A stretch of 64,000 bases of DNA from assembly GCA_048937405.1 (NCBI GenBank), contig JBHLNF010000010.1, positions 21,338-85,337 of the forward strand. The letters run 5' to 3'. Positions 17,022 to 62,917 of the stretch are shown here, in pieces. Within the stretch, counting starts at the first letter, position 1, and each line of letters starts with the position of its first letter. A model generated the notes under the pieces. It was given only the letters and a program-made list of their open reading frames with translations, had not been told where the DNA came from and searched no databases. Source of the stretch: Promethearchaeota archaeon (GTDB taxonomy: Archaea; Asgardarchaeota; Lokiarchaeia; Sigyniarchaeales; SOKP01). A program made the position numbers and the translations under genes.

Positions 17022-17351
17022 TTATATTTCTGGGGCAGTCATATTTAGTATCTTATACGCTTCGCTGAAATCCAAAATTATTTCTGCTTTATATTTAAAA
17101 TTTTCGATCCCTGCAGCCATAAATATGTTTTGCTTAGAGACCCTTTTCAAAGCTTCATTTTCTTTTCCTTTAACAATGTCAGCCATACTTATCGTCAGAA
17201 CATTTCCATCTTTATTTGATAAGACCCCTATACGAACGTTGGTCGTAATTGTTTTATCAAGTGGATTATCCTTTAGCCAATCCATATACCTTTTAGCAAC
17301 TTTATTTGATTGATTTGCTGGAAACCAACTTTTTGTTAATAAAATAGTTAT
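17022..17351 (-). CDS. Small hypothetical protein (SWxP family, paralog of 19307-19627)
   Basis: TILLTKSWFP aligns with TYIFVYSWYP. Proposed start ATA 17351 after GGTGA (ORF track gives GTG 17360). Confidence 0.75.
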   Translation of the reverse strand: MTILLTKSWFPANQSNKVAKRYMDWLKDNPLDKTITTNVRIGVLSNKDGNVLTISMADIVKGKENEALKRVSKQNIFMAAGIENFKYKAEIILDFSEAYKILNMTAPEI

Positions 17352-17608
17352 AAAAATCACCCTTAGTTTAACTTTTATAGATTAGATTTCCTAGTAAGTC
17401 TAAATATGAAATAGTTAATATAAGTCTTTACATTTTTGTCTTAATTTAGATTGATTATCTATCGTAAAATATCATTAAAAGAAGATTTAAAAAATGAAAC
17501 ATAATGAATTTATAAAACTTGAATAAAGAGAAAGGTAAATCAACCGTATTTTAAATGTATAAATATGTTTTAAACTGTATAATAAAACGTAAATATATAA
17601 TCAATATT

Positions 17609-19018
17609 TTATTTAGAATGCGTGTTAAGATATTCCCTAAACGTGCACATCTTATCCAAGGCCTTAGCTGCTAAATGTACCGACTCGAATACTGGAACTT
17701 TTAATTTAAACATTTCTCTTTTAAACAGTACTTTATTAGCAAAATCACTAGTATCATCTACAACTTTATATGCTAAACAAAAAAGTGGTTTTTTCATTTC
17801 CTTATAAGCTCGTTTAATAGTTTCAAGGAACTGACGGCCGAATTCACGTGTCTTAATGAACATCACTCCAGAGATATTAGGATCTGCATCTAAAGTTATT
17901 AGAGTCTTGTAGAATATTTCTGGATCGCTCATACTTCCTCCTAGATCCAGAGGATTTCGGAAAATTGTATTCACATCTGGAACAAATTGTGTAAACTTTT
18001 CAACTGTTTTAGGTGATAGTTTAGGTACTTTTAAATTATTTCTTTCAAAAGTATCAGTTGTTTCGATTGAAGCACCACCACCTCCAGTAGTAATTGCCAT
18101 ATTTCTATCTAAGGGCATGCTACTGATATGTTGAAATAACATTGCCAAAGTAATTAATTCATTTGAATCCTCTACTAATAGAGCACCAGTTTGTTTTGCC
18201 ACAGCTTCCCATATTTTTAAAGATCCCGCTAAACCTCCTGTATGAGACACGATTGTTTCTCTTGTCGCTTCTCCACTCCCTACTTTCCAGAGAATAACAG
18301 GTTTTCCTTTCAATGTTAATTCCTTAACAACCTTCATAAATTTTCTCCCAATTTCAATACTTTTAATATTTTCAACGTAGAGAGCAACTATTTTTGTCTC
18401 CTCATCATGTAAAAAATATTCCAAGAAATCTACAAAATTTAAATCGATTTGATTTCCGATTGATAGAATTTTACTAGGATAAGTGCCATAGATTGATTGT
18501 CCTTTCGTTGAAATATAAATTGCTAAACCTCCAGATTGAAAAATACCTCCAAAATTACCAGATTGATCAGTTAGGAGAATACGCGAAAATGAAACATGAT
18601 TTTTAGGTACAAAAATCCCTAGACAATTTGGGCCAATTATGCGTATTTCATTTCTTTTTGCAATTTCAAGAACCTCTACCTCTAAATGACGATTTCCAAC
18701 CTCTGAAAATCCTGATGCAAAAACAGTAACAAATGGTACTCCCTTCTTGCCACATTCTTCTAAAACTACCGGACAAATTTTAGCAGGAACAGCAAGTATG
18801 ACATAATCAATAGGATTATTCTCAGGAATTTCTAAAATAGAACCATACACAGGGATGTCCTTAATTGTGTTCCCTTTTAATCTCGGATTTACAAGATAAA
18901 TAGGCTTCTCATAGCCAATATTTAAAAGAGCATCAATAAAAAAACTCCCAGCTTGTTTTTCATTAGCACCTATTATACAGATACTTCTCGGATTGAATAA
19001 TTTTTCGAAATCAGTCAT
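17609..19018 (-). CDS. Acyl-CoA synthetase (ADP-forming) alpha-subunit-like protein
   Basis: CoA-binding N-terminus (LFNPRSICIIGA), ASGFSE, GPNCLG, QSGG, SHTGGLAG phospho-His motif, NPLDL. Confidence 0.9.
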   Translation of the reverse strand: MTDFEKLFNPRSICIIGANEKQAGSFFIDALLNIGYEKPIYLVNPRLKGNTIKDIPVYGSILEIPENNPIDYVILAVPAKICPVVLEECGKKGVPFVTVFASGFSEVGNRHLEVEVLEIAKRNEIRIIGPNCLGIFVPKNHVSFSRILLTDQSGNFGGIFQSGGLAIYISTKGQSIYGTYPSKILSIGNQIDLNFVDFLEYFLHDEETKIVALYVENIKSIEIGRKFMKVVKELTLKGKPVILWKVGSGEATRETIVSHTGGLAGSLKIWEAVAKQTGALLVEDSNELITLAMLFQHISSMPLDRNMAITTGGGGASIETTDTFERNNLKVPKLSPKTVEKFTQFVPDVNTIFRNPLDLGGSMSDPEIFYKTLITLDADPNISGVMFIKTREFGRQFLETIKRAYKEMKKPLFCLAYKVVDDTSDFANKVLFKREMFKLKVPVFESVHLAAKALDKMCTFREYLNTHSK

Positions 19019-19306
19019 CACAAAACGTATCAATTTTGATTTAGAATTACTATAATCAAAAAAGTGAATAAAGTTAAAATTTTGCTTATTTTTTTTAGTT
19101 AGATCAATCCTAGTAACAAAAGTTTATTTTTTTATTAGAAAAATCAAAGTGAACTACACCAATCCTAAAAATCGTGATATACTACAAGTATGCAACTGTT
19201 TCTAATATGGGTTAATCTGTATATCTTAAATAACTTAAAAAATAGTCTTTTTAAATCAAAATTATATTAAAGTTAAAAAAAAGTTTTATTTAATGGATAT
19301 AGAATA

Positions 19307-19627
19307 TTAGGGTAGACTTTTTCCTATCACGGCCAAACCTTCTTCTACAGTTGCCCAAACCTCAATTGAATATTCAAATCCTTCAATACTTAGGAACATC
19401 GCCATTTGAGTACGAGCACGAGTCAGAGCGTCCTCCAGTTTTCCTTCCATAACTTTATTGACACCAAGGGTTTTTATTCCTTCGCAACCTGTTTTTACTG
19501 CACTAGGGATAATTTCTTCAACCAAGGATTCATCTACAGGAAACTTTTTTAACATTTCAAGATAAACTTTAACAACTTCTTCGGTCTTATGGCTAGGATA
19601 CCAACTATATACAAAAATATATGTCAT
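19307..19627 (-). CDS. Small hypothetical protein (SWxP family)
   Basis: 106 aa, GAGGT SD, paralog of 17022-17351. Confidence 0.8.
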   Translation of the reverse strand: MTYIFVYSWYPSHKTEEVVKVYLEMLKKFPVDESLVEEIIPSAVKTGCEGIKTLGVNKVMEGKLEDALTRARTQMAMFLSIEGFEYSIEVWATVEEGLAVIGKSLP

Positions 19628-19778
19628 AATTTTTACCTCTTCTAATTTTAATTGAAATAATTAGATTTCGATGTGATTAATACTAGGATTTTTTATTATA
19701 AAAGTATTTACATTCTTGTACAATTAATATTTTAGTGACCATAAAAAAAGAATTGATGACTTCAATAAATCATAGATT

Positions 19779-20249
19779 TTAATCATATCCAATTTTTAAT
19801 TGTTTTAAGAGTTCTATTAAAGATTTTGTTAAGTTGTAATTTTTCAATTCCTCAAATGGGACAAAGCTTGCATCTAAGGCATCATCTGCAGCTCTAGGTG
19901 GTTGAGTAAGATCTCCTTCGATTTGTTCTACAAAATAATTAAGTAATACATAATGATATTCGATCTTTCCATTCTTATCATACATTATCTTATCAATGAT
20001 TCCTGCTAATTCGGTTACTTTCACTTTAAACCCTGTTTCCTCATATACTTCTCTCTCCGCTGCCTTTTTGACTTTTTCTCCTAGATCTAAATGCCCTCCA
20101 GGAATACTCCAATATCCTGCATCTGGATCATATTTTCTTTTTACTAATAATAAACGATTTTCTCGAATTAACAGTACTCCTACTCCAATATGGGGAAATG
20201 TGGGATAATGACGAATTTCAAAAAGATTTATTTCTTTTTTATCAGCCAT
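19779..20249 (-). CDS. Nudix hydrolase
   Basis: Nudix box GGHLDLGEKVKKAAEREVYEETG. Confidence 0.95.
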   Translation of the reverse strand: MADKKEINLFEIRHYPTFPHIGVGVLLIRENRLLLVKRKYDPDAGYWSIPGGHLDLGEKVKKAAEREVYEETGFKVKVTELAGIIDKIMYDKNGKIEYHYVLLNYFVEQIEGDLTQPPRAADDALDASFVPFEELKNYNLTKSLIELLKQLKIGYD

Positions 20250-20339
20250 ATTTCATCTAAATTCTTAATTAAATTATACTTTAAAAAAATGATTTTTTAC
20301 ATAATATCTTATGCAAATCTAAAAGTTATCAAAAAGAAT

Positions 20340-21562
20340 TTATATATAACTTTTAATACCTTCCAAATAAAGGGGAGATATGCCTATCTTTTTATTACTG
20401 ATCCAATATCCTCGAGGAGGTAATATTATGTTATTCTCTTTGCAAATCCGACCTAAATGAGAAGATGAGATCCCATAATATTCACAAAGTTCCTTAATCG
20501 GAATTATCATTACAAGATGCTGAATCTCTTCTAATATTTCATTAGTGATTATAATTTTAGTATTTTTATCTATTAATTCTTTGGGAGTAACTAATCTAAT
20601 TCGTTTTTTCGGCATACTTTTTTTATAATTGTCTAACATTTGATTGAATAACTCTGCACCTAAATGAAAAGACCAAGCATTTTTTCTAGGTTCATGATAT
20701 ATAACAAATGGTAAATTAAATCTGGTCTTTATTTGATTTATAAATTTTAAACTACTACTTGTGATTCTCGTAGATCCTCTTTACCATCTCCATCAAAAAA
20801 ACCTAATAAAAATGCTAAATATAATTCCTGCTTGTTAAGTTTTGGCAATTCAATAGTGTAAGTTTTCATCTTTCCAATGATTAAACCATGTTTAATCAAA
20901 TATTTAGCAAAGATATCACTTGTAATTTCAAATCCATACAGTCCATTTGTTTTTACGTTTACATATTTAGGTTCAATTCCAATAATTTTTGCCAGACAAT
21001 CTACTGTGTTTATAGAATCAATATCTTTTGCATTAAGTCCAAATCTAAATCTCAAATTTATATTTTTATATCTTTTTCCACTTTTTTTGTAGCTAATACT
21101 TCCATCAGCAAAGATAAATCCTAGCCAATAAGCTTTTTCTTTTGTGTTAATATTTTTAAAATAATGGAGATTAAAGTTTGGATGATAATTGTAGATTTTA
21201 TATGGCTCTAACTTTAAGTTATTCAACTTATTATACTTTTCAATTAATCTGATTGCGTGTAAAGATTTTTCCTTTAATTTCTTTCTTAAATTGAACTTAT
21301 AATCAAAAACTTCTTGCTTAGAAATCTGGAAACGTGAATTGCGAGCAATATTTTTCTTAATATAAGTTATAAGATTTTCCTTTTGACCTAAAAAGTTGCT
21401 TAATATCTTATCTGTTATTTTATAATTAGAAATTGATTGTAATTCCTTTTTTAAATCATTAATAAGCATTAATGTTGTGTAAGTATTTTTACTGGTTTTG
21501 ATATTTTTGGTATTATCAGTAATATAATTCTTTATCCTCACCCCATATTCTTTCCCCATCAA
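20340..21562 (-). pseudogene. Two-motif LAGLIDADG endonuclease-like gene with C-terminal HTH, frameshifted near 20777
   Basis: AYWLGFIFADG and AFLLGFFDGDG motifs. Adding one base in AAAGAGGATCT joins ORF 20747-21562 to ORF 20340-20639 via GSTRITSSSLKFINQIKTRF... Confidence 0.82.
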
Positions 21563-21710
21563 TATCTTTTATTACTTATAAGCAATAAGAATAAAGAGAG
21601 TCTTAAATTATTAATTTTTTTCAATAAAGGATGAATTTACAATTCAGAATAAATTTATATTATTAATACGATAGAAAGAATATAAGGATTCATTAATATT
21701 TGTTAATTAT

Positions 21711-22196
21711 ATGGTTCGTCCATGGTATTGGCCAAAAAATGGTATGCCGGATAGAGCGATTCCTTTTACATGGATAGTTAAAAATAAAATGGCTGCTTCA
21801 TGGTGGCCAGATAAGCAAGTAATTGAGAAATATAAGAAAGAAGGGATTAAGGTTGTCGTGAACTGCTCTGAGTTCGATAATAAGAAAGAAATTTCTCCTT
21901 ATTTTGAATATTTTCATATTAATATCCCAGACTTTGGAACTCCAAAGGAGACTCAAGTAAAAAAATTTCTGGATATTACCAGTAGATTTGGAGCTAATGA
22001 TGATCCGATAGTTGTTCACTGTGTAGCAGGTTGTGGAAGAACTGGTATAATGATTGTGATATGGGCTACGTATAATGGTTATATTCCAAATGGATTGGAT
22101 CCAGTAAAATGGATTCGAAATCTTAGGCCTTGTTCCTTAGAAACAAAGGAACAAATGGACTTAGCACGAAAAATGGTTAGAAAGTATCAAAAATAA
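21711..22196 (+). CDS. Dual-specificity protein phosphatase (Cdc14/DUSP-like)
   Basis: IPDFGTP WPD-like loop, VHCVAGCGRTG P-loop, RPCSLET..Q. Confidence 0.93.
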   Translation: MVRPWYWPKNGMPDRAIPFTWIVKNKMAASWWPDKQVIEKYKKEGIKVVVNCSEFDNKKEISPYFEYFHINIPDFGTPKETQVKKFLDITSRFGANDDPIVVHCVAGCGRTGIMIVIWATYNGYIPNGLDPVKWIRNLRPCSLETKEQMDLARKMVRKYQK

Positions 22197-22287
22197 CTTT
22201 AATGTAAAGTATTTAAGATTGGAATATATTTTTATTATTAGGTATATCTTTTTTTGATTATATAATTAGTGTTAAGGCTATATATTA

Positions 22288-23451
22288 ATGCAAAAAACTG
22301 ACTATATATACATGATTACGGACAATATTTTGGTTTATCAGATTAATTTACCAGAAGAACTTGGGGGAAATAATTTACATGTGCATTTGAATAAATATGA
22401 TGAAGAATATCTTAAAATTATTGCCGGATTTGATAAAAACTTCTTAGAACATTTTTTAATAATATCAAAAGGGCGAAACCCGCAAGATTTTACTGATATT
22501 CTTAAAAAAATGGAAAAGATCTCTTTCATGATTGGTCCTACAGGAAATTTAAGTTATCTTACATCTAATCAAATCCAGTATATTCTTACTCAGTTAGGAT
22601 CTTTAAACTTAAGAGAAATTAAAGAGACTAAAATAAGTAAAATTGCGGATGAACAGATAGAAAAAGAATTTGGAGCCTCACATGATGGTTCATCAGCATT
22701 AGAACGTCAACTATCTAGCGCAGCATTTTATTTACAATCCATTGGATATTCACATCAAGATATACAAGAACTATTTAATGAAGTTAGACAAGATCATTCT
22801 AAGATAGATACTCTATTCACCTTGCAACCTAAAGAAATTTATAGCATGCCAGAAGAAATCCAACCTAGAAGCAATCCCCCCTCGAGAGCTCAAGCAACCT
22901 CAACTACTCAATCTAATCCTATTGAATCAAGTGTAGAAACTCAAAATGCAATTGATCGACATGTTCAAGCAATTCAACATGAAATTTCTGGAGAGAGAGC
23001 TAAAAAAGTCGACGAAATAATGCAATTAATAAAAGATCATGTTAAGGAGCATATGAATGACAGATATGAGAGAGTACTTAGACAGATCCATCCTGATCGA
23101 TTAAATCGTGCTTTTAAAATGCTGAAAGAGACAAAAAGGAAATCCAAAAGGATGAATCTTTATTTAGAATGGTTTTTTTGCTCTCATCTTTTAGCTAATA
23201 TTGAAGTAAAAGTTGAACATTGGCAAACAAGTAGCGCAGCGGGTCATGGGCAAACAGGAGTTTATACTGCAGGAATAAGTTTTTCTCGATATGATAACAT
23301 TATAAGAGATTTTCCAGATGCCAAATTAACAAAAGTTATAAATATAGCCAGAAAGATACTCCAAAATCCAACTAAAAAAGCAATTCAGAAATTAGCTACA
23401 GACTTGGTAGCCGAAACAGGATTTGATGAACATCTTTACTTCACAGATTAA
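22288..23451 (+). CDS. Hypothetical protein with central S/T/Q/P-rich linker
   Basis: 387-aa ORF with no family recognised. Confidence 0.75.
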   Translation: MQKTDYIYMITDNILVYQINLPEELGGNNLHVHLNKYDEEYLKIIAGFDKNFLEHFLIISKGRNPQDFTDILKKMEKISFMIGPTGNLSYLTSNQIQYILTQLGSLNLREIKETKISKIADEQIEKEFGASHDGSSALERQLSSAAFYLQSIGYSHQDIQELFNEVRQDHSKIDTLFTLQPKEIYSMPEEIQPRSNPPSRAQATSTTQSNPIESSVETQNAIDRHVQAIQHEISGERAKKVDEIMQLIKDHVKEHMNDRYERVLRQIHPDRLNRAFKMLKETKRKSKRMNLYLEWFFCSHLLANIEVKVEHWQTSSAAGHGQTGVYTAGISFSRYDNIIRDFPDAKLTKVINIARKILQNPTKKAIQKLATDLVAETGFDEHLYFTD

Positions 23452-23496
23452 ACTAAATTATTGAAGAAAAATTTTAGGAACTGATAGAATAAATTT

Positions 23497-25125: not shown

Positions 25126-25254
25126 TTGAACCCCTATCCACCTATTCTAGAAATATTAAATTATATAATAGAAAATATGCAAGGTTTTAAAAAGTATAAT
25201 TTAAAAAAAAAGATTAATATTTTAATGGGTATTTATTCAAGGATTTTTTACTAT

Positions 25255-25614
25255 TTATAATACTCCTATAAATAGATTTTGAAAGATCATCAATAAAGCT
25301 AGAGCTAGTATTCCCATACCTGATGCGAAAACCATTCCTCTTCTAACTTCTCCTGAAAGGTCCCTGTCACTCATCGCCCCGAGAAAAGTTGATAAGCAAA
25401 ACATTATTATACCCAATTGTGTGAAAAATCTTGTGAAAGCTGTGAGATATCTTAATATTCTATAATAATCCTCATATTCCTCAAAATCAGTAGGTGGTTC
25501 AACGAGACTTGAAATAGTTACTAGAATTATGCCTACTATCACTAAAAGCATAGAAATGGTAAAGAGTTTTACGTAGTTTTTCTTAAACATGGATCCTCGA
25601 TATGATTCTGAAAT
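25255..25614 (-). CDS. Small 3-TM membrane protein
   Basis: Three hydrophobic segments. Start uncertain: ATT 25614 after GGTGA, GTG 25623, or ATG 25590. Confidence 0.75.
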   Translation of the reverse strand: MSESYRGSMFKKNYVKLFTISMLLVIVGIILVTISSLVEPPTDFEEYEDYYRILRYLTAFTRFFTQLGIIMFCLSTFLGAMSDRDLSGEVRRGMVFASGMGILALALLMIFQNLFIGVL

Positions 25615-25677
25615 AAATTTCACCTTTATTAATGCAGAATTGGATTAAATATGATTATGATGTTATCTTATAAAAAG

Positions 25678-31304: not shown

Positions 31305-31724
31305 TTAATTCTCAGCTTCTTTCTCAAATAGATCTTCAAATTGCATTCCTAATCCTTTAGCAATCTTATTTAATAAATTTTCGTTAAAATTTGAAGTTAA
31401 TTGTTCATCATCTATTTCACTTAAAGAAGCTAATTTATCAAGGCTAATTCCAGCTATTTCAGCAACCTCTTTTGATTCTGCAAACGATTTAGTTTTAAAG
31501 ATATCCTTAATAATTGGTTCTTGATAAAAAATATTATCTAGTGATGTTTGAAAAATTTCAGTTAGTTTAAATGATAATATTAAAGAAGGGTTATAATCCC
31601 CTTTCTCCAAATAATAGATCGTTTGACGTGAAACACCTACTTGATCTGCTAATTGTTGCTGTGTTAAGCCAAGTTCTTCTCTGAAATCTTTGACTTTTGA
31701 TTTAATTGATTTTTTAAATTTCAG
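31305..31724 (-). CDS. XRE/Cro HTH transcriptional regulator with a second degenerate HTH
   Basis: The frame upstream of TTG 31610 encodes the HTH LTQQQLADQVGVSRQTIYYLEKG. No ATG/GTG/TTG occurs before the in-frame stop, and CTG 31724 lies 6-7 nt after GGTGA(G). Confidence 0.85.
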   Translation of the reverse strand: MKFKKSIKSKVKDFREELGLTQQQLADQVGVSRQTIYYLEKGDYNPSLILSFKLTEIFQTSLDNIFYQEPIIKDIFKTKSFAESKEVAEIAGISLDKLASLSEIDDEQLTSNFNENLLNKIAKGLGMQFEDLFEKEAEN

Positions 31725-37544: not shown

Positions 37545-37710
37545 ATATAATCATTCTTCTCAAATGAAGTGAAATTATTTGTTATAATCATTCGATTGAT
37601 TTTAAATTTTAGTTAGAAAGTTTTTATAGGTGTGAATTCGTAAATATAATGAATAAAAATTTTTTATAATTTAAACAAAAAATATTAGAAAAAATTAAAG
37701 GTGGTTAATT

Positions 37711-39411
37711 ATAGGATTAAGATTAGCTTCGGGGCTAGCAATAACTTCTCTATTTGCTTTAATGTATGCAGTTATTTTCGTTATTGGTGTTTGGTTTTTA
37801 CCCTCAACAATATTTGGTTTACTTTTCATGGTAGGACTGACGATTATGATGGTATTATTTCAATATGGAATTTCTCCATTGATTATTGGTTGGCTTTACA
37901 GAATAGATTGGATACCCTATGAGCAATTTGTACGGCAATTTCCACATTTAGTAAACTCTCTTGAAAAAGTGGTAGCATATAATCGAATTAAGATGCCACG
38001 GCTTGGGATAATACATGATCTCAATCCAAATGCATTTACATACGGATGGACTAAAAATTCTGCCAGAGTTGTTCTTACTGATGGTATTTTAAAATACTTA
38101 AACAAAAAAGAGCAGGATGCTGTGTTTTCGCATGAGTTAGGGCATGTGGTTCACTCGGATTTCATTTTAATGACGGTAGTGTTTGCAATTCCGCTACTTT
38201 TACTATCTATCGCTCGATGGGCATATTATGCCAGCTTTTTTTCAAGGGGTAGTTCAAGAGATGATGAGGGTGCTTTACTTGGTATTGCTCTAATCGCTAT
38301 AGCTTTATTATCCTACTTAAGTTATTACATAAGTTATTTTATCTCACTTATAATAAGCAGAATTAGGGAATATTACGCGGATGAACATAGTGCAGAAGTT
38401 TTAGAGAACCCAAACGCGTTAGCAACCGGACTTGTTAAGATAGCTTATGGTTTATTGGTCGACGGTAATATTGAGGAAAGAAAAAAATCCCGCGTACTAG
38501 CACTGAGAGGATTAGGAATTTTTGATCATAGAGCTGCAAAGGGATTGGGTATTATAAGTGTAGGAAAAACAGGAGTTCTTTCAATGGAAGCTATACAAAA
38601 AGCTGCTGCTTGGGATTTATACAATCCTTGGGCGAAATATTTTCAAGCCTTCTCCACTCATCCATTACCTGCAAAAAGAATAATGCGATTAAATATGTTA
38701 TGCGAAATTTATGGTATTAAGCCTGAAATTGACTTTTCTGATGCTAAAAGATTAAAAGAAGAACAAGCAGGAAAATCGTTATGGGATGAATTTCTATGGG
38801 ATATGTTTATAAAAGTTCTCCCTACACTTGTTTTTATTGCTCTACTTGGTTTAACAATAGTATGGATATTTGATCTAGTTTTTGATGGTTTCAATATAGC
38901 TTTTCTGACTCCCTTTTATGCAAACATGTGGCTTGTATGGGCAATTGGTTTTTATATTATAGGTTTCATGACTATAATAAAAACCATATATATGTATAAG
39001 GGAGGTTTTGAAGATAAAACAGTGTTGGACTTAGTTACTAATGTGAAAGTATCACCTATCAGACCAGTACCTGCGTTTTTAGAGGGAAAGATTGTTGGAA
39101 AAGGTATTCCAGGTTACTATTTTAGTGAAGATATGTATTTCCAAGATAGTACTGGTTTACTTTATGTAGATTATAGATTCGGAATTGGTATTGCAGATTT
39201 AATATTTTCCCTTGGAGCTGTTAATCGGTTAGTAGGTCAAAATGTAAGAATTAAAGGTTGGTATAGAAGAGGCCCAAGCCCTTATATTCAAGTAGATACA
39301 ATTTGGTCTGAATCTGGAAAAAGACATAGAAATTATGCGAAACATCTAAGATATATCTGGACAGCTTTAGCATTTATCATTGGTATAGTATGCTTTTATT
39401 TCTGGCTCTAA
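37711..39411 (+). CDS. htpX: HtpX-like M48 zinc metalloprotease with C-terminal extension
   Basis: PNAFT, HELGH, SRIREYYAD, FSTHP..KRI. Proposed start ATA 37711 after AGGTGG (ORF track gives ATG 37762). Confidence 0.9.
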   Translation: MGLRLASGLAITSLFALMYAVIFVIGVWFLPSTIFGLLFMVGLTIMMVLFQYGISPLIIGWLYRIDWIPYEQFVRQFPHLVNSLEKVVAYNRIKMPRLGIIHDLNPNAFTYGWTKNSARVVLTDGILKYLNKKEQDAVFSHELGHVVHSDFILMTVVFAIPLLLLSIARWAYYASFFSRGSSRDDEGALLGIALIAIALLSYLSYYISYFISLIISRIREYYADEHSAEVLENPNALATGLVKIAYGLLVDGNIEERKKSRVLALRGLGIFDHRAAKGLGIISVGKTGVLSMEAIQKAAAWDLYNPWAKYFQAFSTHPLPAKRIMRLNMLCEIYGIKPEIDFSDAKRLKEEQAGKSLWDEFLWDMFIKVLPTLVFIALLGLTIVWIFDLVFDGFNIAFLTPFYANMWLVWAIGFYIIGFMTIIKTIYMYKGGFEDKTVLDLVTNVKVSPIRPVPAFLEGKIVGKGIPGYYFSEDMYFQDSTGLLYVDYRFGIGIADLIFSLGAVNRLVGQNVRIKGWYRRGPSPYIQVDTIWSESGKRHRNYAKHLRYIWTALAFIIGIVCFYFWL

Positions 39412-53114: not shown

Positions 53115-53120
53115 AATTTA

Positions 53121-53907: not shown

Positions 53908-54282
53908 TTCTTACCAATATATACATGAAAACTTAGCATTATAAAAGTCTCCTATATAATATAGGGCATTATTAATGTTCTATATACTCTAAATAGTCTA
54001 CTTGATAGCAATATTGATTAAAATTAAATTTGAAAAATATTTAGGGAAAAGGAGTGTTGCAGTATGAAACTGCAACAATTTGTCAACATAGAATTAAAAT
54101 GGAAAGAAAAGAATAAATGTGCATTGAGGAGAATTTGTTAAGGCGATAAGGGTTCTAGTTGACTTCCATCACTAATTTGTATATTCTTTAGCGGATATAT
54201 AAAAACTGTCTCCATAAAATCAATTGATAAATATTGAGTATATATTATACATAGTAATATATGTTAATGGATTAATAATCCT

Positions 54283-54900
54283 ATGAAAAATTTTTATAAT
54301 TTCTGTATTTGGAAAGATTCTGAGAATTGCAATAATTGCTTCCTTAATGGTAAACTAATATGTCATTTCCATAGAAAATATTTATTAAGTTTTCTTGGAT
54401 TTTTTTTTGCTTTTGCTATTACTGCTTTTGTAGGAGTGATAATAGCGGGTTATGGTTGGTTTTTATTAGGTTGGATTGGTTTTTGGTTATTTTTCTTTGA
54501 ATTTTGGGAGATTCGAATTCTATGTAGTCATTGTCCTTTCTATGCTGAAGAGGGGAAAACATTACATTGCATTGCTAATTATGGCAGCTTTAAACTATGG
54601 AAATTTCACCCAGAACCTATGAATTTGTCTGAAAAAATTCAATTACTAATTGGTTTTATTATTCTTGTTGGGTATCCTTTAATTTTTTTGATATTAGATG
54701 CTCAAACAATCTTTTTAATAATTTGTATTATTGAAATTTCCATTTTCTTTATTTTTTTAATCACAAAAAGGTGCGGAAATTGTTTAAATTTCTCTTGTCC
54801 TCTCAATCGTGTAAAAAAAGAAATAGTCGATTGTTTTCTTAAAAAAAATCCAGTAATGGGAATGGCTTGGAAAGATAAAGGATATAAAATCTTAAAATAA
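54283..54900 (+). CDS. Cys-rich 4-TM membrane protein
   Basis: CxxC clusters (CNNC, CSHCPFY, CGNCLNFSCPLN) flank the TM helices. Confidence 0.8.
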   Translation: MKNFYNFCIWKDSENCNNCFLNGKLICHFHRKYLLSFLGFFFAFAITAFVGVIIAGYGWFLLGWIGFWLFFFEFWEIRILCSHCPFYAEEGKTLHCIANYGSFKLWKFHPEPMNLSEKIQLLIGFIILVGYPLIFLILDAQTIFLIICIIEISIFFIFLITKRCGNCLNFSCPLNRVKKEIVDCFLKKNPVMGMAWKDKGYKILK

Positions 54901-54992
54901 TAAATTGTGAATCATTCGAGAATTTATAATAAACAGTCACAGTATTTAACAGAAAGTATTTATAGAGAATCGCCAAATACTTTTTTCTCTGG

Positions 54993-56174
54993 CTATTTCT
55001 TTACATAACAACGAACTGGAAAACCGTTTGAAATTGCTGCTAGACAACGATTGCAAGAAATACAAGCTGCCTTTTCTTGTTTTCCTTCTTTAAAAGATTT
55101 AACTAAATAAGGTTCCCTAATGAATGGTCTTGCCATTGAAATAAAATCTGTAAAGCCTTTTTCTATAATTTCTTCAAAATAAGCTTTATTTCTCAAACCA
55201 CCTACGACAATTATGGGTAATTTACCAATAATTTTTTTGATTTCTTTTGCAGCTTCAACATTATAACCTTCCTCTAATTCAAATTTTCCTTTCATGTCTA
55301 ATAAAGATTTTTCTGCTAATGGTTTTATCTTATCTGGCAAATATTCAGTAAATTCTTTGACTGGAACAGTTCCACGACACATATTAAATATAGAGAAAGT
55401 TGTTGAACCAGCGCTAACCTCAATTCCATCAATACCTGATTTTTTAAGCCATTTTGCATATTTACATGCTAAGGGGATATTGATTCCTTTTCCTGGAGTG
55501 TAATCTACAGTATTAAGTTTTAATAAAAGAGCCATATCTCTTGGAATGACTTTTTTAATGTTTATTATAATTTCTTTGGTATACTTAAAACGATTTTCAT
55601 CTGTTCCGCCCCACTTATCTTTTCTACGATTATAAAAAGGAGAGAGAAACTGATTGATTAAGTATCCATGAGCACCATGCAATTGAATTGCATCCGCGCC
55701 TGCTTCAACGGCACGCCTAGCAGCCTCAATAAATGATTCAATTGACTCTTGGATATCTTCTTCGGTCATTTCTTTTGGTTTGGTAAAGGTTATTGGATTC
55801 ATAACTTGTTTGGAGGGCCCCAAAGGAAGAGACCCTATTATTGCTTTATGTGTTTGCAATCCTCCATGTCCTATTTGAAATGCAACTTTTCCATCTTCTC
55901 TATGAATCATGTTAACCATTCGTTTTAGACTAGGAATTAAATCATCATTATGAATTCCTGTTTGATTTTTGGATATCTGTCCTAAAGGATGCACATACAT
56001 AAAGCCTGTAATAATTAAGCCAATTTCACCTTTAGCAAGGACACTAAAAAGTTTAATAAGTTGTTCAGATACTTCACCAGATTCATGAGCCAAATTGGTA
56101 ACTACTGCTGAACGTACAAAACGATTTTTTACTTCTATTTTTCCAATATTCATTGATTTAAATAAAATTGAAAT
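54993..56174 (-). CDS. NADH:flavin oxidoreductase (OYE-like) 3
   Basis: KNRFVRSA, QLHGAHGY, CISCNRC. Proposed ATT start 56174 after GGTGA (ORF track gives ATG 56153). Confidence 0.93.
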   Translation of the reverse strand: MSILFKSMNIGKIEVKNRFVRSAVVTNLAHESGEVSEQLIKLFSVLAKGEIGLIITGFMYVHPLGQISKNQTGIHNDDLIPSLKRMVNMIHREDGKVAFQIGHGGLQTHKAIIGSLPLGPSKQVMNPITFTKPKEMTEEDIQESIESFIEAARRAVEAGADAIQLHGAHGYLINQFLSPFYNRRKDKWGGTDENRFKYTKEIIINIKKVIPRDMALLLKLNTVDYTPGKGINIPLACKYAKWLKKSGIDGIEVSAGSTTFSIFNMCRGTVPVKEFTEYLPDKIKPLAEKSLLDMKGKFELEEGYNVEAAKEIKKIIGKLPIIVVGGLRNKAYFEEIIEKGFTDFISMARPFIREPYLVKSFKEGKQEKAACISCNRCLAAISNGFPVRCYVKK

Positions 56175-56401
56175 AATTTATCACCATTTTTACACATTTC
56201 ATAAATTTTTACTTAATTTTGAGATCCCTTAGTAAATATAATAGTTCATTAATAGTTGAGGATGATTATAACATTTAAAATTCTTAGATAATATTATTAT
56301 CTAATTTTTAATGATTTCTTTTATTTAAATAAAGAAAACACACTTTTTAATTAAAATAAAACCTTTAAATTGTTTAAAGAAACTTAATATAACAGAATAT
56401 T

Positions 56402-56767
56402 TTGTCTATTTTGGAAATTTTGAAAGAAAAAAGATGTCGGGTTATTAAGAAATACGAATCGCCATATACAGATCCTTTTTTAATAACTAAGGGAGAAATG
56501 TTATCTATTAGTGAAAAAGATAGTGAATGGTCAGGATGGATATGGTGTACCAAAAAAAATGGAATAAGTCGTTGGGTACCTGAGAGTTATCTTGAAATCG
56601 AGGGAAATTCTGGTAAAGCAAACCAAGATTATAAGGCAACAGAACTTTCTGTTAATGTGGGAGAAGAATTATTCATTGAACAAGAAGAAGCTGAATGGTA
56701 TTGGGTTACAAATCAGCAAGGAAAAAGTGGTTGGGTTCCAATTAAAAATGTTCAATTAATTATGTAA
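56402..56767 (+). CDS. Tandem SH3-domain protein
   Basis: Two SH3-like units: GWIW...WVPESYL and ELSV..GE...WYW...GWVP. Confidence 0.85.
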   Translation: MSILEILKEKRCRVIKKYESPYTDPFLITKGEMLSISEKDSEWSGWIWCTKKNGISRWVPESYLEIEGNSGKANQDYKATELSVNVGEELFIEQEEAEWYWVTNQQGKSGWVPIKNVQLIM

Positions 56768-57347
56768 CGAGATCGGATTTCATACTATTTTGAAACAATT
56801 TTAAATGATTTAATCCTTTACTATTAAGGATTTCTTTCAACATAATCTTAAAGACTATTTCTACGTTCTCTCCTGTTTTTGAAGAACATTCAAGATAAGC
56901 ATATAATTTGTGTGAATATAATAAATCTAATGCTTCTTCTTTTTTACAAATTCTCTGTTGTTCAAGATCTAATTTGCTGCCAACCATTAATATAGGTAGT
57001 TTTCCCATTATTTTTCTAATTTCTGGAAGCCAATTAACTATATTAGTTAGACTTTCATAATTAGTAAGGTCAAACATAAAAATTCCACCAGATGATCCTT
57101 TAGCATATGAGGGAATTAGGAATTTAAACCTATCTTCACCACCAAAATCCCATACTTGAAGTATTATTTGTCCATTCTCAAAATAAAAATATTTTATATG
57201 TATCGTTGCTCCAAGAGTTGATTTAATGTATTCATGATATTTATTTGTAATATAACGATCTATTAATGTCGTTTTTCCAACACCACTATCACCAAAGATA
57301 CAAATTTTATATGTTAAATTTATCCGATCTTCATTAGATCCTTCCAA
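56760..57347 (-). CDS. Rab-like small GTPase
   Basis: GDSGVGKT, STLG, WDFGGE, SKLD, ECSSK. No CAAX motif. Confidence 0.93.
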   Translation of the reverse strand: MEGSNEDRINLTYKICIFGDSGVGKTTLIDRYITNKYHEYIKSTLGATIHIKYFYFENGQIILQVWDFGGEDRFKFLIPSYAKGSSGGIFMFDLTNYESLTNIVNWLPEIRKIMGKLPILMVGSKLDLEQQRICKKEEALDLLYSHKLYAYLECSSKTGENVEIVFKIMLKEILNSKGLNHLKLFQNSMKSDLVT

Positions 57348-57756
57348 TTCTGAACATCCTCAACAAAAATAATGAATCTTTATAATTTAATTATAAAAAA
57401 ACCTATTCTTATACCTTTAATCAAGATTTGCTATTTCTTGAAAAAAATATTATATGGTGATTATTTTTTCATTAATTTAAATATTTTACTTTTCAAATTT
57501 GTAAATTATATTAGAATAAGAATTAAATAACTTCTTATTTCGTATAAATAATAAAAATTTAAGATTTAACGTTTGATTATAAGACAGTAATTATTGGTGG
57601 TATTGAACTAAAGTTACAAAGGCAATTCCAAACCATATAGTGTTCCACATAAAACAATTCATTGAATGGTTGGATTCCTAGTAAATTGTACAAATAACTA
57701 ATAAAATATGAATCACTAAATATTATCAACAAAACATTAAACTCATTTGTCAAATC

Positions 57757-58566
57757 ATGTCTAAATACTCAAATAGTAAAGATTGGTTCGAAATCATTAA
57801 GCAAAAAGATTATTTATATGTTATTCGAGAAAGATTAGATGAAATTGATCCTCGATTTCATACTACTTATACTAACTTATATTTAATTTTAGGTTCTCAT
57901 TCTGCTTTATTGATCGATACTGGTTCTGGATTATTTCCACTTAGGCATATTGTAGATAATTTAATCTTAGATAGAAAATTAAAAGTAATAAATACTCATT
58001 CTCACTTTGATCATATTGGTGGAAATCATGAATTTGAAAAAATTCACATTCATAATGAAGAACGAGAGCAAATTTTAAAACCTCATGGTATTTCTTTTTT
58101 AAAAGAATCTTCTAAAGAAATAACTAAACTTTATAAAAATAAGAATTATTCCCTTCCACCTGCTAAAGATATCCAACTGGTTAAAGATGAGGAAATTATA
58201 GATCTTGGGGATAAATCTGTGAAAGTTATTCATACACCAGGTCATTCATCTGGTTCAATCTGTTTATATACTAACGAAAATGAACTTTTTACGGGAGATA
58301 CTGCTCATTATGGAACAATGTATCTTTCAGAAATAAGGTTTCCTATTTTTCTATCAAGTATCTCAAAATTACTTAATTTGATTCAAAATTTAGAAGATAT
58401 TGAAATTTTTCCTTCTCATGAAGAATTCGCTGTAAGCAAAGATTTACTGATAGATCTTAGGAAGGGTATAAATGAGATTGATAAGATTTGGGATACAAAA
58501 ACTCGAGATGATTTTTTTGAAGCTTGGTTATTATCAGATGAAAATTTTAAATATTTGATATTTTGA
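57757..58566 (+). CDS. Metallo-beta-lactamase-fold hydrolase
   Basis: THSHFDHIGG, TPGHS, FTGD, PSH. Confidence 0.93.
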   Translation: MSKYSNSKDWFEIIKQKDYLYVIRERLDEIDPRFHTTYTNLYLILGSHSALLIDTGSGLFPLRHIVDNLILDRKLKVINTHSHFDHIGGNHEFEKIHIHNEEREQILKPHGISFLKESSKEITKLYKNKNYSLPPAKDIQLVKDEEIIDLGDKSVKVIHTPGHSSGSICLYTNENELFTGDTAHYGTMYLSEIRFPIFLSSISKLLNLIQNLEDIEIFPSHEEFAVSKDLLIDLRKGINEIDKIWDTKTRDDFFEAWLLSDENFKYLIF

Positions 58567-58582
58567 ATTGATTTCTCTTTAA

Positions 58583-59038
58583 TTACATTTTCATTTTAAC
58601 TGCTACTATTTCTCCTGTAGCACATTCTTTATCTCTAACAAAAAGCGAACATGACACATTAATTTTTCTTTCCTGCATATCCTTTATTCGCGCTCTGAAA
58701 ATCCATGGTTTATTCAATGGGGCCGGATTCAAAAATTTCACAGATAAACTTCCTGTTAAATATAACATTGGTGGATCTGTTCCAAATTCTCGACCTTCAG
58801 CTCTGTAAGCGGCGGAAATTGCAGTATTAAGACAGTGACAATCAAGAATAGTGGCTATTATTCCCCCACATCCTCTACCAGGAAAGGCACAGTAATATTT
58901 TTTTGGTTTCCAAGTGCAAATACACTCTTCTCCTTCCCAATAGCTCTTTATTTGCAATCCATGTTCATTATTTTTACCACATCCCCAACAATAAGTGCCC
59001 ATTTCAGGCCATTGATCTTGTATTGCTCTATTTTCCAT
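58583..59038 (-). CDS. PaaI-type thioesterase (hot-dog fold)
   Basis: CWGCG..N..GL, GGIIATILD. Confidence 0.88.
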   Translation of the reverse strand: MENRAIQDQWPEMGTYCWGCGKNNEHGLQIKSYWEGEECICTWKPKKYYCAFPGRGCGGIIATILDCHCLNTAISAAYRAEGREFGTDPPMLYLTGSLSVKFLNPAPLNKPWIFRARIKDMQERKINVSCSLFVRDKECATGEIVAVKMKM

Positions 59039-59169
59039 AAATAATCCTCTTTTTTGATTTTATATAAAGTTATTTCTTTAATAATACGAAAATAATTAAC
59101 TATCTTACTATAATTTCTTTATGAAATATCAATATTATTTAAAAAGATTTTAAGGATAAATTGAGGAAA

Positions 59170-59883
59170 TTAAGTCTTTTTCCACCAATAAGGAAAGTCT
59201 ACTGAAATTAATTCATTGGAATTTAAAAGTAATATCTTATCTTCTAAAAATGTTAAAGCAAATCCTCCTAGATATGATACCCAATTCTTACTTGGAGGAA
59301 TTCCAAACCAACCAAAACGTAGTGCTATTAAAAAAAAATCATGTGTAATATGGATATCTATATTTCTACCAGGCCCCTCTTTTAATTTTTTCAAAAAAAG
59401 TTCAGCTGCTTTTTTACAGTATTCCTGTAGAGGTGTTATTTCATTTGGAGAATATAAACCTGCGATCCAACGAAAAAAGAACTGCTTACCTGAATACTTT
59501 TTTATTTGATTTGGGAAAAAATCTCGCGCAGTTTCTAAATTAAAAAGAGGCCCAAAGGAACCTAAGATTTCACCTTCTCCATCAATATTTTTAAATCCAG
59601 ATAAAATATCTTCTGCTGTTTCTTGACACCTCCAAACAACGCTATGAAATAATCGAATAGATCTATTTCTAGGTAGTTCTTCACCGAATTTTCTAGCAAT
59701 CATATGTCCTTCAGGAGTTAATCTAAGTTTGATTATTGTATCTAACTCTTTAGGTTCATCTCTTTGAGAATGTCTAAGAATAAGTAGGATTTTTGAGTTA
59801 TCTGGAAATTTTTTAAGTCCTTCGATTATTTGTCGTGCTTCAGAAGTCCAATCAGCTTCTTCCCAAATTTTATTGATATCCAT
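59170..59883 (-). CDS. Histidine phosphatase superfamily protein
   Basis: LRHS, LT..G, RC.ETA, THD. Confidence 0.88.
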   Translation of the reverse strand: MDINKIWEEADWTSEARQIIEGLKKFPDNSKILLILRHSQRDEPKELDTIIKLRLTPEGHMIARKFGEELPRNRSIRLFHSVVWRCQETAEDILSGFKNIDGEGEILGSFGPLFNLETARDFFPNQIKKYSGKQFFFRWIAGLYSPNEITPLQEYCKKAAELFLKKLKEGPGRNIDIHITHDFFLIALRFGWFGIPPSKNWVSYLGGFALTFLEDKILLLNSNELISVDFPYWWKKT

Positions 59884-59986
59884 GTAAATTAGAATATTAT
59901 ATACCTTTAGAAAATTTACTTTTTATAAATTAAAAGGATAAGTTAATGATGATGCGATATTTATAATAAAGAAAAATTAAAATAAG

Positions 59987-60322
59987 CTATTTTTCACTCA
60001 ATCCAGTTAAGACTTGTTCCATTTTCTTTCGGTAAATTTCAAAAGCTTCTCTACCTTGTTTACTGAGTTTCAAAATGGTTTGTGGTTTTTTACCCTTAAA
60101 CTTTTTTTCTACTTCCACGTATCCTACAGATTCAAGTCTGTTTAAATGAGAAGATAAATTTCCATCAGTTAATCCTGTTTGATTTCTCAAGAAAACGAAA
60201 TCAGCACTCTCAACAACATATAAAACTGACATAATCATCAATCTTGATGGTTCATGAATGATTTTATCAATGTCGCTGAGTGGTTGGATAATATCCTCTG
60301 ATTCCGCTTTCTTCTTTGCCAT
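59987..60322 (-). CDS. Winged-helix transcriptional regulator (HTH_34-like)
   Basis: IHEPSRLMIM, GLTDGNLSSHL..LE..GYV. Confidence 0.92.
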   Translation of the reverse strand: MAKKKAESEDIIQPLSDIDKIIHEPSRLMIMSVLYVVESADFVFLRNQTGLTDGNLSSHLNRLESVGYVEVEKKFKGKKPQTILKLSKQGREAFEIYRKKMEQVLTGLSEK

Positions 60323-60332
60323 TGAAACACTT

Positions 60333-60968
60333 CTATTTTGTTAACTGATAATTTCTAAAAAATGTTATAAAATAATATAAACCAATTATTACAATTACCC
60401 CTCCCATAATACCAAAAGGAAGTAAAGTATCCAGAGGGGTCCCTACGATTGGATAAAGCAATTCTGTTAAAAAAAAACCTAATCCTGCCAGAATGGCATA
60501 AATATATAATCTTGTGAAATCTAAAAAATAAGCTACTACTACAAAAGGTAAGGTTATTGCCACTAATCCAAGAATTAATGCCATTATAAGTGGTTCGAAT
60601 TTTATGGAATTAACTAAGTCTGTAAAAGTTAAAATCAATAGAACGATATTTAAAATTAAAAATGCAAATAAAAATAGCCTGAGTTTTTGTTGCTTTGATT
60701 TACGCTTTGGTCCAAATTTAACAATTCCTAGACGTGGAATAGTGATAAGCTTCTTCCCTAAATAAAATATCAAAAAAGCACTAATATTTAAGATTAAGCT
60801 CGGAATAACAGCAATCCATAAGTCATCCCAATTGAGAATTGAACTCAAAAAAGTACTAAACCCTAAACTTAATATAATCAAACCGATAAATAAATCCCAT
60901 AATCCATCCTCGAAAATTGACCTATACGCTTTTCTCTCAAGTGATCTTAAATCTACATTTTCAGTCAT
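60333..60968 (-). CDS. 6-TM membrane protein, tandem paralog 4
   Basis: EDGL.D, T.PRLGIVKFG, F..YPL-type tail shared across the array. Confidence 0.85.
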   Translation of the reverse strand: MTENVDLRSLERKAYRSIFEDGLWDLFIGLIILSLGFSTFLSSILNWDDLWIAVIPSLILNISAFLIFYLGKKLITIPRLGIVKFGPKRKSKQQKLRLFLFAFLILNIVLLILTFTDLVNSIKFEPLIMALILGLVAITLPFVVVAYFLDFTRLYIYAILAGLGFFLTELLYPIVGTPLDTLLPFGIMGGVIVIIGLYYFITFFRNYQLTK

Positions 60969-61610
60969 CTATTGAGTCCTCTCCTCTTTTGGTAGTGGAT
61001 ATCTCTTGAGAAAACGAATAAAAAGTGCTAAACCCATTAAAAAAATAACGGCTCCTATTATTCCATATGATAAAAGCGATCTAGTAACCCAATCCATTGA
61101 ATCATATAATAACGCATTGATGAAATTTGCTAACCATATAAGCAATCCAATTAGATATAATCGTGGGAATTTCATCAAAAATCCCATTATCGCGAAAGTA
61201 GGTATAAAAAGTAAGCCAGTTATTAACATAAATATCATTTCTGATACTTTTGATCCCGAGCCACTTCCTGTAAATAATAGGATAAGAAGTATTAATTCTA
61301 TTAACAATTGAATAGATACTAATATAAATAACTTCTTTCTTATTGACTTTATAGAGGGACCCGGTTTAACCACTCCAGTTCTGGGTTGAATGATGTATTT
61401 GGTAACATAAAAAGTTGATACAAGGGATATAAAAACAACAATCAATTGCCACAAAAAATATTTATATGGTGAAGGCAAACTCTCATAAAAGAAGGGAAAA
61501 AAACCCATTCCCAAAAGTAAAAAGCCAAATATTAAATCAATAAAACCATGTTGGTGAGCCGTTTTGAGAATATTTTTCTCAATTTTTTTAAAATTAAAAT
61601 TCTCTGCCAT
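60969..61610 (-). CDS. 6-TM membrane protein, tandem paralog 3
   Basis: HQHGFID, QPRTGVVK, FLKRYPL. Confidence 0.85.
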   Translation of the reverse strand: MAENFNFKKIEKNILKTAHQHGFIDLIFGFLLLGMGFFPFFYESLPSPYKYFLWQLIVVFISLVSTFYVTKYIIQPRTGVVKPGPSIKSIRKKLFILVSIQLLIELILLILLFTGSGSGSKVSEMIFMLITGLLFIPTFAIMGFLMKFPRLYLIGLLIWLANFINALLYDSMDWVTRSLLSYGIIGAVIFLMGLALFIRFLKRYPLPKEERTQ

Positions 61611-61613
61611 TTT

Positions 61614-62252
61614 TTAAGTCAACTCCTCTATTGATAATGGATGTTTCTTAAGAAAACGAATAAAAAGTGATAAACCCATTATAAAAATAATACCTCCCAT
61701 AATCCCATACGATAAGAGATATCTAATTGTATAGTCTATGGAATCCTGTAATAGCTCGTTGATGAATATAGCTAACCATATAAGCAATCCGATTAGATAT
61801 AATCGGGGATATTTCATCAAATAGCCAATTATTCCAAAAATAGGTATAATAAATAAACCTATAATTAATATAAACATAATTCCTGTTACTTTTATCCCTG
61901 AACCACTTCCTGTAATTAATGAGATAATAAGTATTAACTGGATTGTTAATTGAATAATTATCACAATGAATAATTTTTTTCTCATTGATTTTATAGAAGC
62001 ACCTGGTTTAGCAATCCCTGTTCTCGGTTGAATGACGTATTTAATAACAGTAATAAGACACACCTCCGCTATTATCACAAGAATTAATGGCCATAAAAAA
62101 TACTTATATGGTGAGGGTAAGGTTTCACGAAAGAAAGGACCAAAACCCATTCCCGCAACTATAAAGCCAATAAGCATATCAAAAGAACCATGCTGGTGGG
62201 CTGTTTTGAGAATATTTTTCTCAATTTTCTTTATATCAATATTTTCAACCAT
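61614..62252 (-). CDS. 6-TM membrane protein, tandem paralog 2
   Basis: Closest to paralog 3. QPRTGIAK, FLKKHPL. Confidence 0.85.
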   Translation of the reverse strand: MVENIDIKKIEKNILKTAHQHGSFDMLIGFIVAGMGFGPFFRETLPSPYKYFLWPLILVIIAEVCLITVIKYVIQPRTGIAKPGASIKSMRKKLFIVIIIQLTIQLILIISLITGSGSGIKVTGIMFILIIGLFIIPIFGIIGYLMKYPRLYLIGLLIWLAIFINELLQDSIDYTIRYLLSYGIMGGIIFIMGLSLFIRFLKKHPLSIEELT

Positions 62253-62255
62253 TTT

Positions 62256-62894
62256 TTAAGCCATCTCCTCTTTTGATAAAGGGTATTTCCGGAGAAATTT
62301 AATTAAAGATACAATTCCCATGATTATTGTTATCCCACTTATAATGCTAAATACTACTAGAACGTCAAAAGGTTCAGGTATAAAAATTGATAATAAATCT
62401 GACAAAAAGAAACTTAATCCCACCAGTAAGCCGATGATATAAAAACGAGGATGTTGGATGAAATATGCCGCAAAACATACAGGAGCTGTTATAAAGAGTA
62501 ATCCTAAAATTAATCCATCTAAATATCCTGGAAATTCTAAGCTTAATTCAGGATTAGTAAATCGGATTAAAAATAGGATTAAAAGAATAAGGAGATTTAT
62601 AGATAATACAACTAAAGTTTTTAATTTACGTCCTTTTCGTTTAATTCCAAATTTTACTATTCCTAATCTAGGTTGAGTAATCATTTTTTTTGCAGTTAAA
62701 AAAAAAGCTAACCCAATTCCAATAAAAATAATTGGAATAAATTTATCGAGAGGATTAGGCACCACAGGACTAAGAGTCATCCCCATACCAAGCCCTAGAA
62801 TTAATATACCAAAATAGATATCTAAAATTCCATCTTCAAGGGTAGATCTCCATGTTTTTTTCTCAATTTCCTTTAAATCAATCTTTTCTGTTAT
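62256..62894 (-). CDS. 6-TM membrane protein, tandem paralog 1
   Basis: EDGILD, QPRLGIVKFG, FLRKYPL. Proposed ATA start 62894 (ORF track gives GTG 62903). Confidence 0.85.
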   Translation of the reverse strand: MTEKIDLKEIEKKTWRSTLEDGILDIYFGILILGLGMGMTLSPVVPNPLDKFIPIIFIGIGLAFFLTAKKMITQPRLGIVKFGIKRKGRKLKTLVVLSINLLILLILFLIRFTNPELSLEFPGYLDGLILGLLFITAPVCFAAYFIQHPRFYIIGLLVGLSFFLSDLLSIFIPEPFDVLVVFSIISGITIIMGIVSLIKFLRKYPLSKEEMA

Positions 62895-62917
62895 TTTTTT
62901 CACCTTAATATTATATT

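Follow-up and report, generated by a model that had tools for sequence, protein, structure and literature searches.

At which codons do the genes of a Lokiarchaeial genome begin? According to reviews, archaeal proteins start at AUG, GUG or UUG on Shine-Dalgarno (SD)-led or leaderless mRNAs, and SD sites are said not to be prevalent in Promethearchaeum (PMC7531240). Gene finders are built on the rule of these three start codons. The question is raised by a stretch of 64,000 nucleotides (nt) from a Promethearchaeota archaeon, here called the window (positions 21338-85337 of contig C10 in assembly G000). An earlier note, made from the letters of the window, had proposed that six of its genes begin at ATA, ATT or CTG behind GGTGA or GGTGG SD sites, that such initiation is common in the lineage, and that starts are systematically mis-annotated as a result. 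The source assembly is a metagenome-assembled genome (MAG) of 4.47 Mb in 29 contigs, with 29% GC and an estimated contamination of 5.7%.

We give a probability of about 85% to the reading that the six sites, together with many others in the genome, are genuine starts, at which the SD places a near-cognate triplet at the 5-7 nt spacing used by ATG. The trait very probably spans this genus of Lokiarchaeia (Promethearchaeia) and extends to one or more other families of the order. AUA and AUU make up most of the start triplets; CUG, AUC and ACG are rare. Literature searches found no published description of AUA or AUU as common primary starts in Asgard or other archaea.

Probable near-cognate starts in the window

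All six near-cognate codons are present with an SD 5-7 nt upstream, as had been proposed. The arrangement is that of a canonical start in the same window: the Ras/Roc GTPase gene, used as a reference (6847..6861, minus strand), has GGAGTGA, 5 nt and then ATG at 6849. Near-cognate codons account for 6 of the 15 starts that lie behind a 5-mer SD within the window. The comparison with orthologues took in as many as 19 further species of the genus. This alignment had been suggested as a check, and in all six genes ATA, ATT or CTG is swapped with ATG, TTG or GTG at the homologous codon, with the SD conserved and always 5-7 nt away.

The gene of an XRE/HTH_3 regulator (31305..31724, minus strand) has CTG at 31724-31722, 7 nt after GGTGA (31736-31732). 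The earlier note had argued that its helix-turn-helix (HTH) begins upstream of the first canonical codon, and this is the case: the HTH_3 domain covers residues 11-63, and no ATG, GTG or TTG is found before codon 39, a TTG at 31610. Seven codons before the CTG, the frame is closed by a TAA. At the same position, 10 other species of the genus have CTG, 5 have TTG and 2 have ATG, mostly 6-7 nt after GGTGAG.

In the M48 peptidase gene (37700..39411, plus strand), ATA at 37711 lies 6 nt after GGTGG (37700-37704). This position is ATA in 17 orthologues of the genus and ATC in 1, and ATG takes its place in two orthologues from another family (MGFKL/MGYKF). The downstream Met18, which a canonical call needs, is Leu or Ile in many species. 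The gene of an Old-yellow-enzyme-type (OYE) flavin mononucleotide oxidoreductase (54993..56185, minus strand) has ATT at 56174-56172, also 6 nt after its SD (GGTGA, 56185-56181). Read from this ATT, the protein matches its Pfam profile from residue 4. The ATT was expected to restore an N-terminal SILF motif; orthologues carry ATT (two), ATA (one), ATG (four) or GTG (one) there and read (M/I/V)SILF in the same register. In both the M48 and the OYE gene, a stop lies 1-4 codons upstream of the near-cognate codon.

The other three genes are on the minus strand and have a spacer of 5 nt. A spacer of this length always puts the GTG of GGTGA in frame, so a mechanical list of open reading frames (ORFs) starts them inside the SD, at 17360, 62903 and 25623, as the earlier note had seen. 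None of these GTGs has an SD of its own. One of the genes encodes a small protein of 109 amino acids, its family unassigned (17022..17361; ATA at 17351-17349; GGTGA at 17361-17357). Its ATA had been placed in register with a paralogue's ATG, and ATG is found at this codon in paralogues, including the one at 19627 of the window. Orthologues have ATA (six), ATT (five) or TTG (one). In two of them (L114 and L117), a stop between the SD's GTG and the ATT means that the GTG cannot be the start there.

The second of these genes leads a tandem array of four paralogues (62256..62904; ATA at 62894-62892; GGTGA at 62904-62900). The claimed register with the ATGs of the other paralogues (62252, 61610 and 60968) is seen in the alignment. 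The codon is ATA in 13 orthologues of the genus and ATG in one more distant orthologue. With the 6-nt spacer of some orthologues, the TGA of GGTGA falls in frame as a stop, and a start at the GTG is excluded. The third gene encodes a small membrane protein of 119 amino acids (25255..25624; ATT at 25614-25612; GGTGA at 25624-25620). It had been rated the weakest case, and it holds, on fewer species. The codon 5 nt after the SD is ATT in two species (G000 and G013), ATC in one (G012) and ATG in three (G002, G006 and G018), and a Ser codon comes next in five of the six.

The tandem array (59987-62903, minus strand) is made up of four paralogues of ~212 amino acids with no Pfam match. Three of them have an AGGAG-type SD and ATG, and only the first has GGTGA and ATA. 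With this ATA kept in 13 species, the lead gene alone retains a weak start.

A near-cognate start was also found for ribosomal protein uS4, on contig C28 of G000 (552393-552899, plus strand; locus L001), with ATA six bases after GGTGA. In 29 relatives the codon is ATG. This species alone has lost the ATG, in a gene that is essential and highly expressed.

Genome-wide statistics

The earlier note called for a genome-wide count of the in-frame codons 5-7 nt behind an SD. The count was made on 4,739-4,775 coding stop-to-stop ORFs of at least 90 codons. SD 5-mers were drawn from AGGAGGTGAT plus GGTGG, and spacings were aligned on the A of GGTGA. For the near-cognate test set, an SD site had to lie at the 5' end of an ORF and to lack a canonical codon in frame at a spacing of 4-9. 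Since a perfect 5-mer SD near the upstream stop is required, the tally is a lower bound; it misses site 62894, where the frame is open for 38 further codons upstream.

A sharp peak of ATA and ATT was found. Canonical ATG starts peak at an SD spacing of 5-6 nt. At ~430 SD sites without a canonical start, ATA made up 17.6% of codons at spacing 5 and 17.5% at spacing 6, and ATT made up 16.0% and 24.6%, while each was near 5% at every other spacing from 1 to 24. Pooling spacings 5 and 6 gave 17.3% ATA and 20.0% ATT, compared to 4.8% and 5.4% at the other spacings. Taken together, the two codons occurred at 97 of 260 positions at spacing 5-6 versus 275 of 2701 elsewhere (odds ratio 5.2, p=2e-27). 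In the other two frames, ATA or ATT stood at these distances in only ~2% of cases. No ATA/ATT peak was seen behind 9,202 SD-like motifs deep inside genes, and other A/T-rich codons (AAA, AAT, TTA, TTT and TAT) were not enriched at SD spacing. CTG and ACG showed a small excess on few counts, and the excess of ATC was not significant.

At spacings 5-7, there were 125 ATA/ATT sites compared to 43.8 expected, an excess of ~81 genes. These 125 candidates fall into 113 sequence clusters, which rules out inflation of the tally by paralogues. Canonical SD-led starts numbered 281 for ATG, 87 for TTG and 23 for GTG. ATT outnumbers GTG among SD-led starts, and so does ATA. The internal frequency of ATG is normal, at 1.8%.

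Independent signatures of initiation

Ser is the commonest second residue after an SD-led ATG (38 of 167, 23%). It follows 26 of the 125 SD-positioned ATA/ATT codons (20.8%), compared to 7.3% of internal ATA/ATT codons (p=1e-6) and 9% of ATA/ATT codons a few codons downstream in the same loci. There were also 71 ORFs in which the GTG inside GGTG[AG] is the first canonical codon. In 26 of these a downstream canonical codon lies at the proper distance from the SD, and in 22 a near-cognate does; such "GTG" starts are usually the SD itself.

The start triplets also change less than other codons. ATA is identical in 17 of 18 M48 orthologues, compared to a mean retention of 45% at 16 fully conserved internal Ile positions. 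The corresponding figures against internal conserved Ile codons are 13 of 13 versus 67% for site 62894 and 20 of 20 versus 47% for the gene of initiation factor aIF1, discussed below; as kin are not independent, all three comparisons are indicative only. This retention suggests that the weak start codon is maintained, with no drift among the Ile synonyms and no reversion to ATG.

Two known routes of initiation were considered. Translational coupling or reinitiation in operons was rejected, as near-cognate starts are rarer near an upstream gene: a preceding gene on the same strand is within 30 nt of 20% of them, versus 45% of SD-led ATGs. Leaderless initiation does not fit the six sites, each with GGTGA or GGTGG 5-7 nt upstream.

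Phylogenetic range and annotation

The close relatives found with uS4 are NCBI MAGs labelled Promethearchaeota or Promethearchaeia, i.e. Lokiarchaeia, Asgard archaea. The earlier note had taken the source to be an archaeon with aIF1 and aIF2, and this is correct. A sister family of the same order includes two closed genomes, Ca. Harpocratesius repetitus (G032) and Promethearchaeum syntrophicum (G038). A 1.6-Mb portion of the Ca. Harpocratesius sequence showed the same peak, with ATA and ATT together making up 18 of 58 codons at spacing 5-6 versus 58 of 703 elsewhere (p=3e-6). Near-cognate genes of Harpocratesius were also looked up twice among Promethearchaeum syntrophicum and its relatives, with no usable orthologue returned. 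The claim that SD-positioned near-cognate initiation is common in the lineage is supported by the agreement of the genome-wide statistics, the orthologue alignments, the Ser at the second position and the conservation of the triplet.

The claim of systematic mis-annotation stood only in part. NCBI truncates two of the six genes: the OYE gene starts at ATG 56153 (386 amino acids) and the 25614 gene at ATG 25590 (111 amino acids). Logan starts the latter at GTG 25623 inside the SD (122 amino acids). The CTG start of the HTH gene, on the other hand, is called correctly by NCBI, with 139 amino acids and the first written as M; a second assembly uses an ATT six codons later (133 amino acids), and in two orthologues (L036 and L037) NCBI annotates an upstream ATG (146 amino acids). 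Annotation look-ups for the other three genes showed no ATG-truncated forms on record. Mis-annotation is real but inconsistent, not systematic. If the lineage routinely uses AUA and AUU, a few percent of its proteins would be mis-started in databases, whether truncated, extended into the SD or inconsistent between assemblies, and comparative work on eukaryotic signature proteins would inherit these start errors.

The start of aIF1

Inspection of aIF1 had been proposed in the earlier note. An archaeal aIF1 (SUI1) gene is present on contig C29 of G000, outside the window (22004-22310, minus strand), and itself starts at a conserved ATT; the loci compared are L173-L202. In G000, an in-frame TGA and TAA lie just upstream, and no canonical codon is found before the CxxC...CxC zinc knuckle. 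The ATT is present in all 20 genus orthologues with a readable start region, and the leader of ~20 nt (GGTTGTGATAAGAGAGT) is nearly identical across these 20 species. The SD is imperfect and the spacing, at 9 nt, is long, which suggests a deliberately weak, regulated initiation site.

Starts of aIF1 in the sister family are TTG, GTG, ATG or ATA. In the sample of other Asgard families, aIF1 lacks a canonical start in three (loci L336, L339, L340, L345 and L347): two have ATA behind AGGAGG and the third has CTG behind AGGTG, each at a distance of six bases. Most other Asgard aIF1 genes sampled start at ATG.

The aIF1 proteins of this order also differ after strand beta-2. The usual T-I-I-E-G-I-D is replaced there by T-V-I-T-F-V-G-N-F or N-F-N-N-F (L173-L202 compared to L336-L365).

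Other features of the window

By Pfam, the window contains genes for a Ras/Roc GTPase, PAS histidine kinases and TPR proteins. The Ras/Roc gene (5290-6849, minus strand) encodes a protein of 519 amino acids with a small-GTPase domain at residues 162-329 (Arf 162-329, Ras 166-328). Genes of this type are typical of Asgard genomes, and the copy in the window begins at a canonical SD-led ATG. A scan of the window with Rfam matched no RNA family.

Alternative explanations

The explanation that survives best beside ours accepts the starts as real and has them read by a specialised decoder. This would be an initiator tRNA with a modified wobble base (C34, e.g. mitochondrial f5C or archaeal agmatidine) or a second initiator tRNA. 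In animal mitochondria, AUA and AUU starts depend on a modified C34 in tRNA-Met, and in our spectrum the third-position variants ATA and ATT dominate. The tRNA inventory of G000 is also incomplete: 14-20 tRNA genes could be detected in the whole assembly with ARAGORN and Rfam, many of them with introns. A specialised decoder nonetheless seems unlikely to us. CTG, also in use and conserved, mismatches at the first position, which wobble modification does not explain. The dominance of ATA and ATT fits AT mutational bias as well. The sole initiator tRNA found, by motif search on contig C3 (minus strand), is normal, with A1, a CAT anticodon and a standard anticodon arm (GGG/CCC stem).

This initiator-type tRNA (AGCGGGG...) lies ~10,340-10,480 from the reverse-strand end of contig C3 and was missed by ARAGORN. 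One interruption follows the anticodon loop, and a second probably lies in the T arm.

A variant genetic code with AUA as Met was rejected, as internal ATA aligns with Ile. Internal ATA codons of G000, when aligned with relatives, correspond to the Ile codons ATT or ATC in 37% of cases, to ATA in 11% and to Met in 3.3%, and thereby behave like ATT and ATC. A-to-I editing of AUA was rejected because it cannot account for ATT or CTG.

A second explanation is that the conventional starts are real, whether the GTG inside GGTGA or the next downstream ATG or TTG, and that the near-cognates are ordinary codons or untranslated sequence by an SD-like motif. ATA and ATT are common triplets at 29% GC, about 44 of the 125 candidates are expected by chance, the GTG is in frame at a spacer of 5, and public annotations do use ATG 56153 and ATG 25590. 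However, the ATA/ATT peak is specific to spacing and frame and is absent inside genes. A TTG start would cut the HTH in half, the downstream Met of the M48 peptidase is not conserved, and orthologue stops separate the SD's GTG from the ATT or ATA. In addition, relatives have ATG at the same codon, Ser is enriched at the second position and the GTGs lack an SD of their own. We therefore consider conventional starts very unlikely.

Assembly or consensus errors for ATG, or pseudogenes with a lost start, are hardly credible: G000 is a MAG of 29 contigs with some estimated contamination and the ATA of uS4 is seen in G000 only, but the same non-ATG codons occur in 13-21 MAGs assembled independently in several projects, which excludes both, and the ORFs are intact and conserved, include the essential genes uS4 and aIF1, and come from a genome of normal internal ATG frequency. 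A motif-specific sequencing error or a Type I methylation motif was likewise rejected, since neither the SD variant nor the spacer is constant and the same codons are met in independent MAGs.

Several points weigh against genuine near-cognate starts. The case is built wholly on sequence statistics and comparative genomics of MAGs, and Met as the first amino acid at these starts is something that we infer. The negative controls are internal only (other spacings, other frames and gene interiors). G000 contains no 16S rRNA, and the anti-SD is therefore assumed. With the chance share of the candidates given above, single calls that lack orthologue support are uncertain, and site 25614 has only five orthologues. 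A 400-kb sample of the same-genus genome G006, which is underpowered, gave 5 of 29 versus 8.5% (p=0.17). In two HTH orthologues (L036 and L037, in G009 and G006), the SD overlaps with an in-frame ATG, 7 codons before the CTG, and the start of this gene may differ between species. Lastly, other Asgard archaea have an identical basic loop 1 in aIF1 (RKWGR), and no obvious fidelity-relaxing substitution was found.

Proposed mechanism

If the near-cognate starts are genuine, start-codon selection would be relaxed in this lineage, and initiation could proceed as follows. The SD:anti-SD duplex would set the near-cognate triplet in the ribosomal P site, where the ordinary initiator Met-tRNA, with its CAU anticodon, would start the protein with one mismatched base. 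Proofreading by aIF1 would be permissive, plausibly because synthesis of aIF1 depends on its own conserved AUU start. A negative feedback like that of bacterial infC would keep initiation stringency low enough for AUU and AUA. The weak codon of each gene may be kept by selection and, in this way, set or regulate the level of expression.

A bolder extension of this mechanism, which we regard as doubtful, is a start-codon-stringency circuit in Lokiarchaeia and possibly other Asgard archaea. The level of aIF1, made from an AUU, AUA or CUG start, would feed back on fidelity, and a regulon of ~100 or more genes with AUA, AUU and CUG starts would respond. If such a circuit exists, eIF1-type autoregulation would predate eukaryotes, and the closest archaeal relatives of eukaryotes would initiate less stringently than other archaea. 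If near-cognate initiation itself is true, the evolution of start-codon fidelity at the archaeal-eukaryotic boundary (eIF1/aIF1) would become testable, since cultured relatives of the same order exist, e.g. Promethearchaeum syntrophicum.

Comparison with known systems

The starts described here share with canonical archaeal initiation the GGTGA-family SD and a spacing of 5-7 nt, equal to that of the ATG starts of this genome. They differ in that ATT and ATA each beat GTG behind the SD, whereas reviews omit both as archaeal starts. In Sulfolobus solfataricus, aIF1 rejects AUU in vitro (PMC4705826). Ribosome profiling of Haloferax volcanii gave near-cognate codons at ~30% of putative alternative initiation sites, which were set aside by the authors (PMC7261190). 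This is experimental evidence that archaeal ribosomes can initiate at near-cognates, but the sites in Haloferax are alternative ones, unlike the conserved main starts that a few percent of the genes have here.

Animal mitochondria (code table 2) have AUA reassigned to Met and use AUA and AUU starts. Like this genome, they are AT-rich and use both codons routinely; unlike them, the Lokiarchaeial genome reads internal ATA as Ile, and its starts depend on the SD. In eukaryotes, near-cognate initiation takes place at CUG, GUG and ACG by scanning and mostly yields upstream ORFs and N-terminal extensions, in contrast to the SD-placed AUA and AUU used here as main starts. The likeness lies in a homologous fidelity factor, eIF1, made from a weak site, so that stringency could be tunable in both.

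Bacterial pcnB has an AUU start. A close parallel is bacterial infC, which also places a near-cognate codon behind a normally spaced SD and, as with the conserved AUU of aIF1 here, encodes a fidelity factor. Both infC and pcnB are isolated genes, whereas the habit here covers ~80 or more genes, ~2% of genes and about one-sixth of SD-led starts. Bacterial IF3, from the SD-led AUU of infC, and eukaryotic eIF1 each autoregulate via a weak start (PMC4705826). The conserved weak start of aIF1 suggests, by analogy, an archaeal counterpart of both; the Lokiarchaeial factor differs from that of infC in being a eukaryote-type aIF1. Near-cognate initiation was previously known from isolated bacterial genes, mitochondria and eukaryotic upstream ORFs, and the comparisons made here support what appears to be new, a selectively maintained habit of a lineage.

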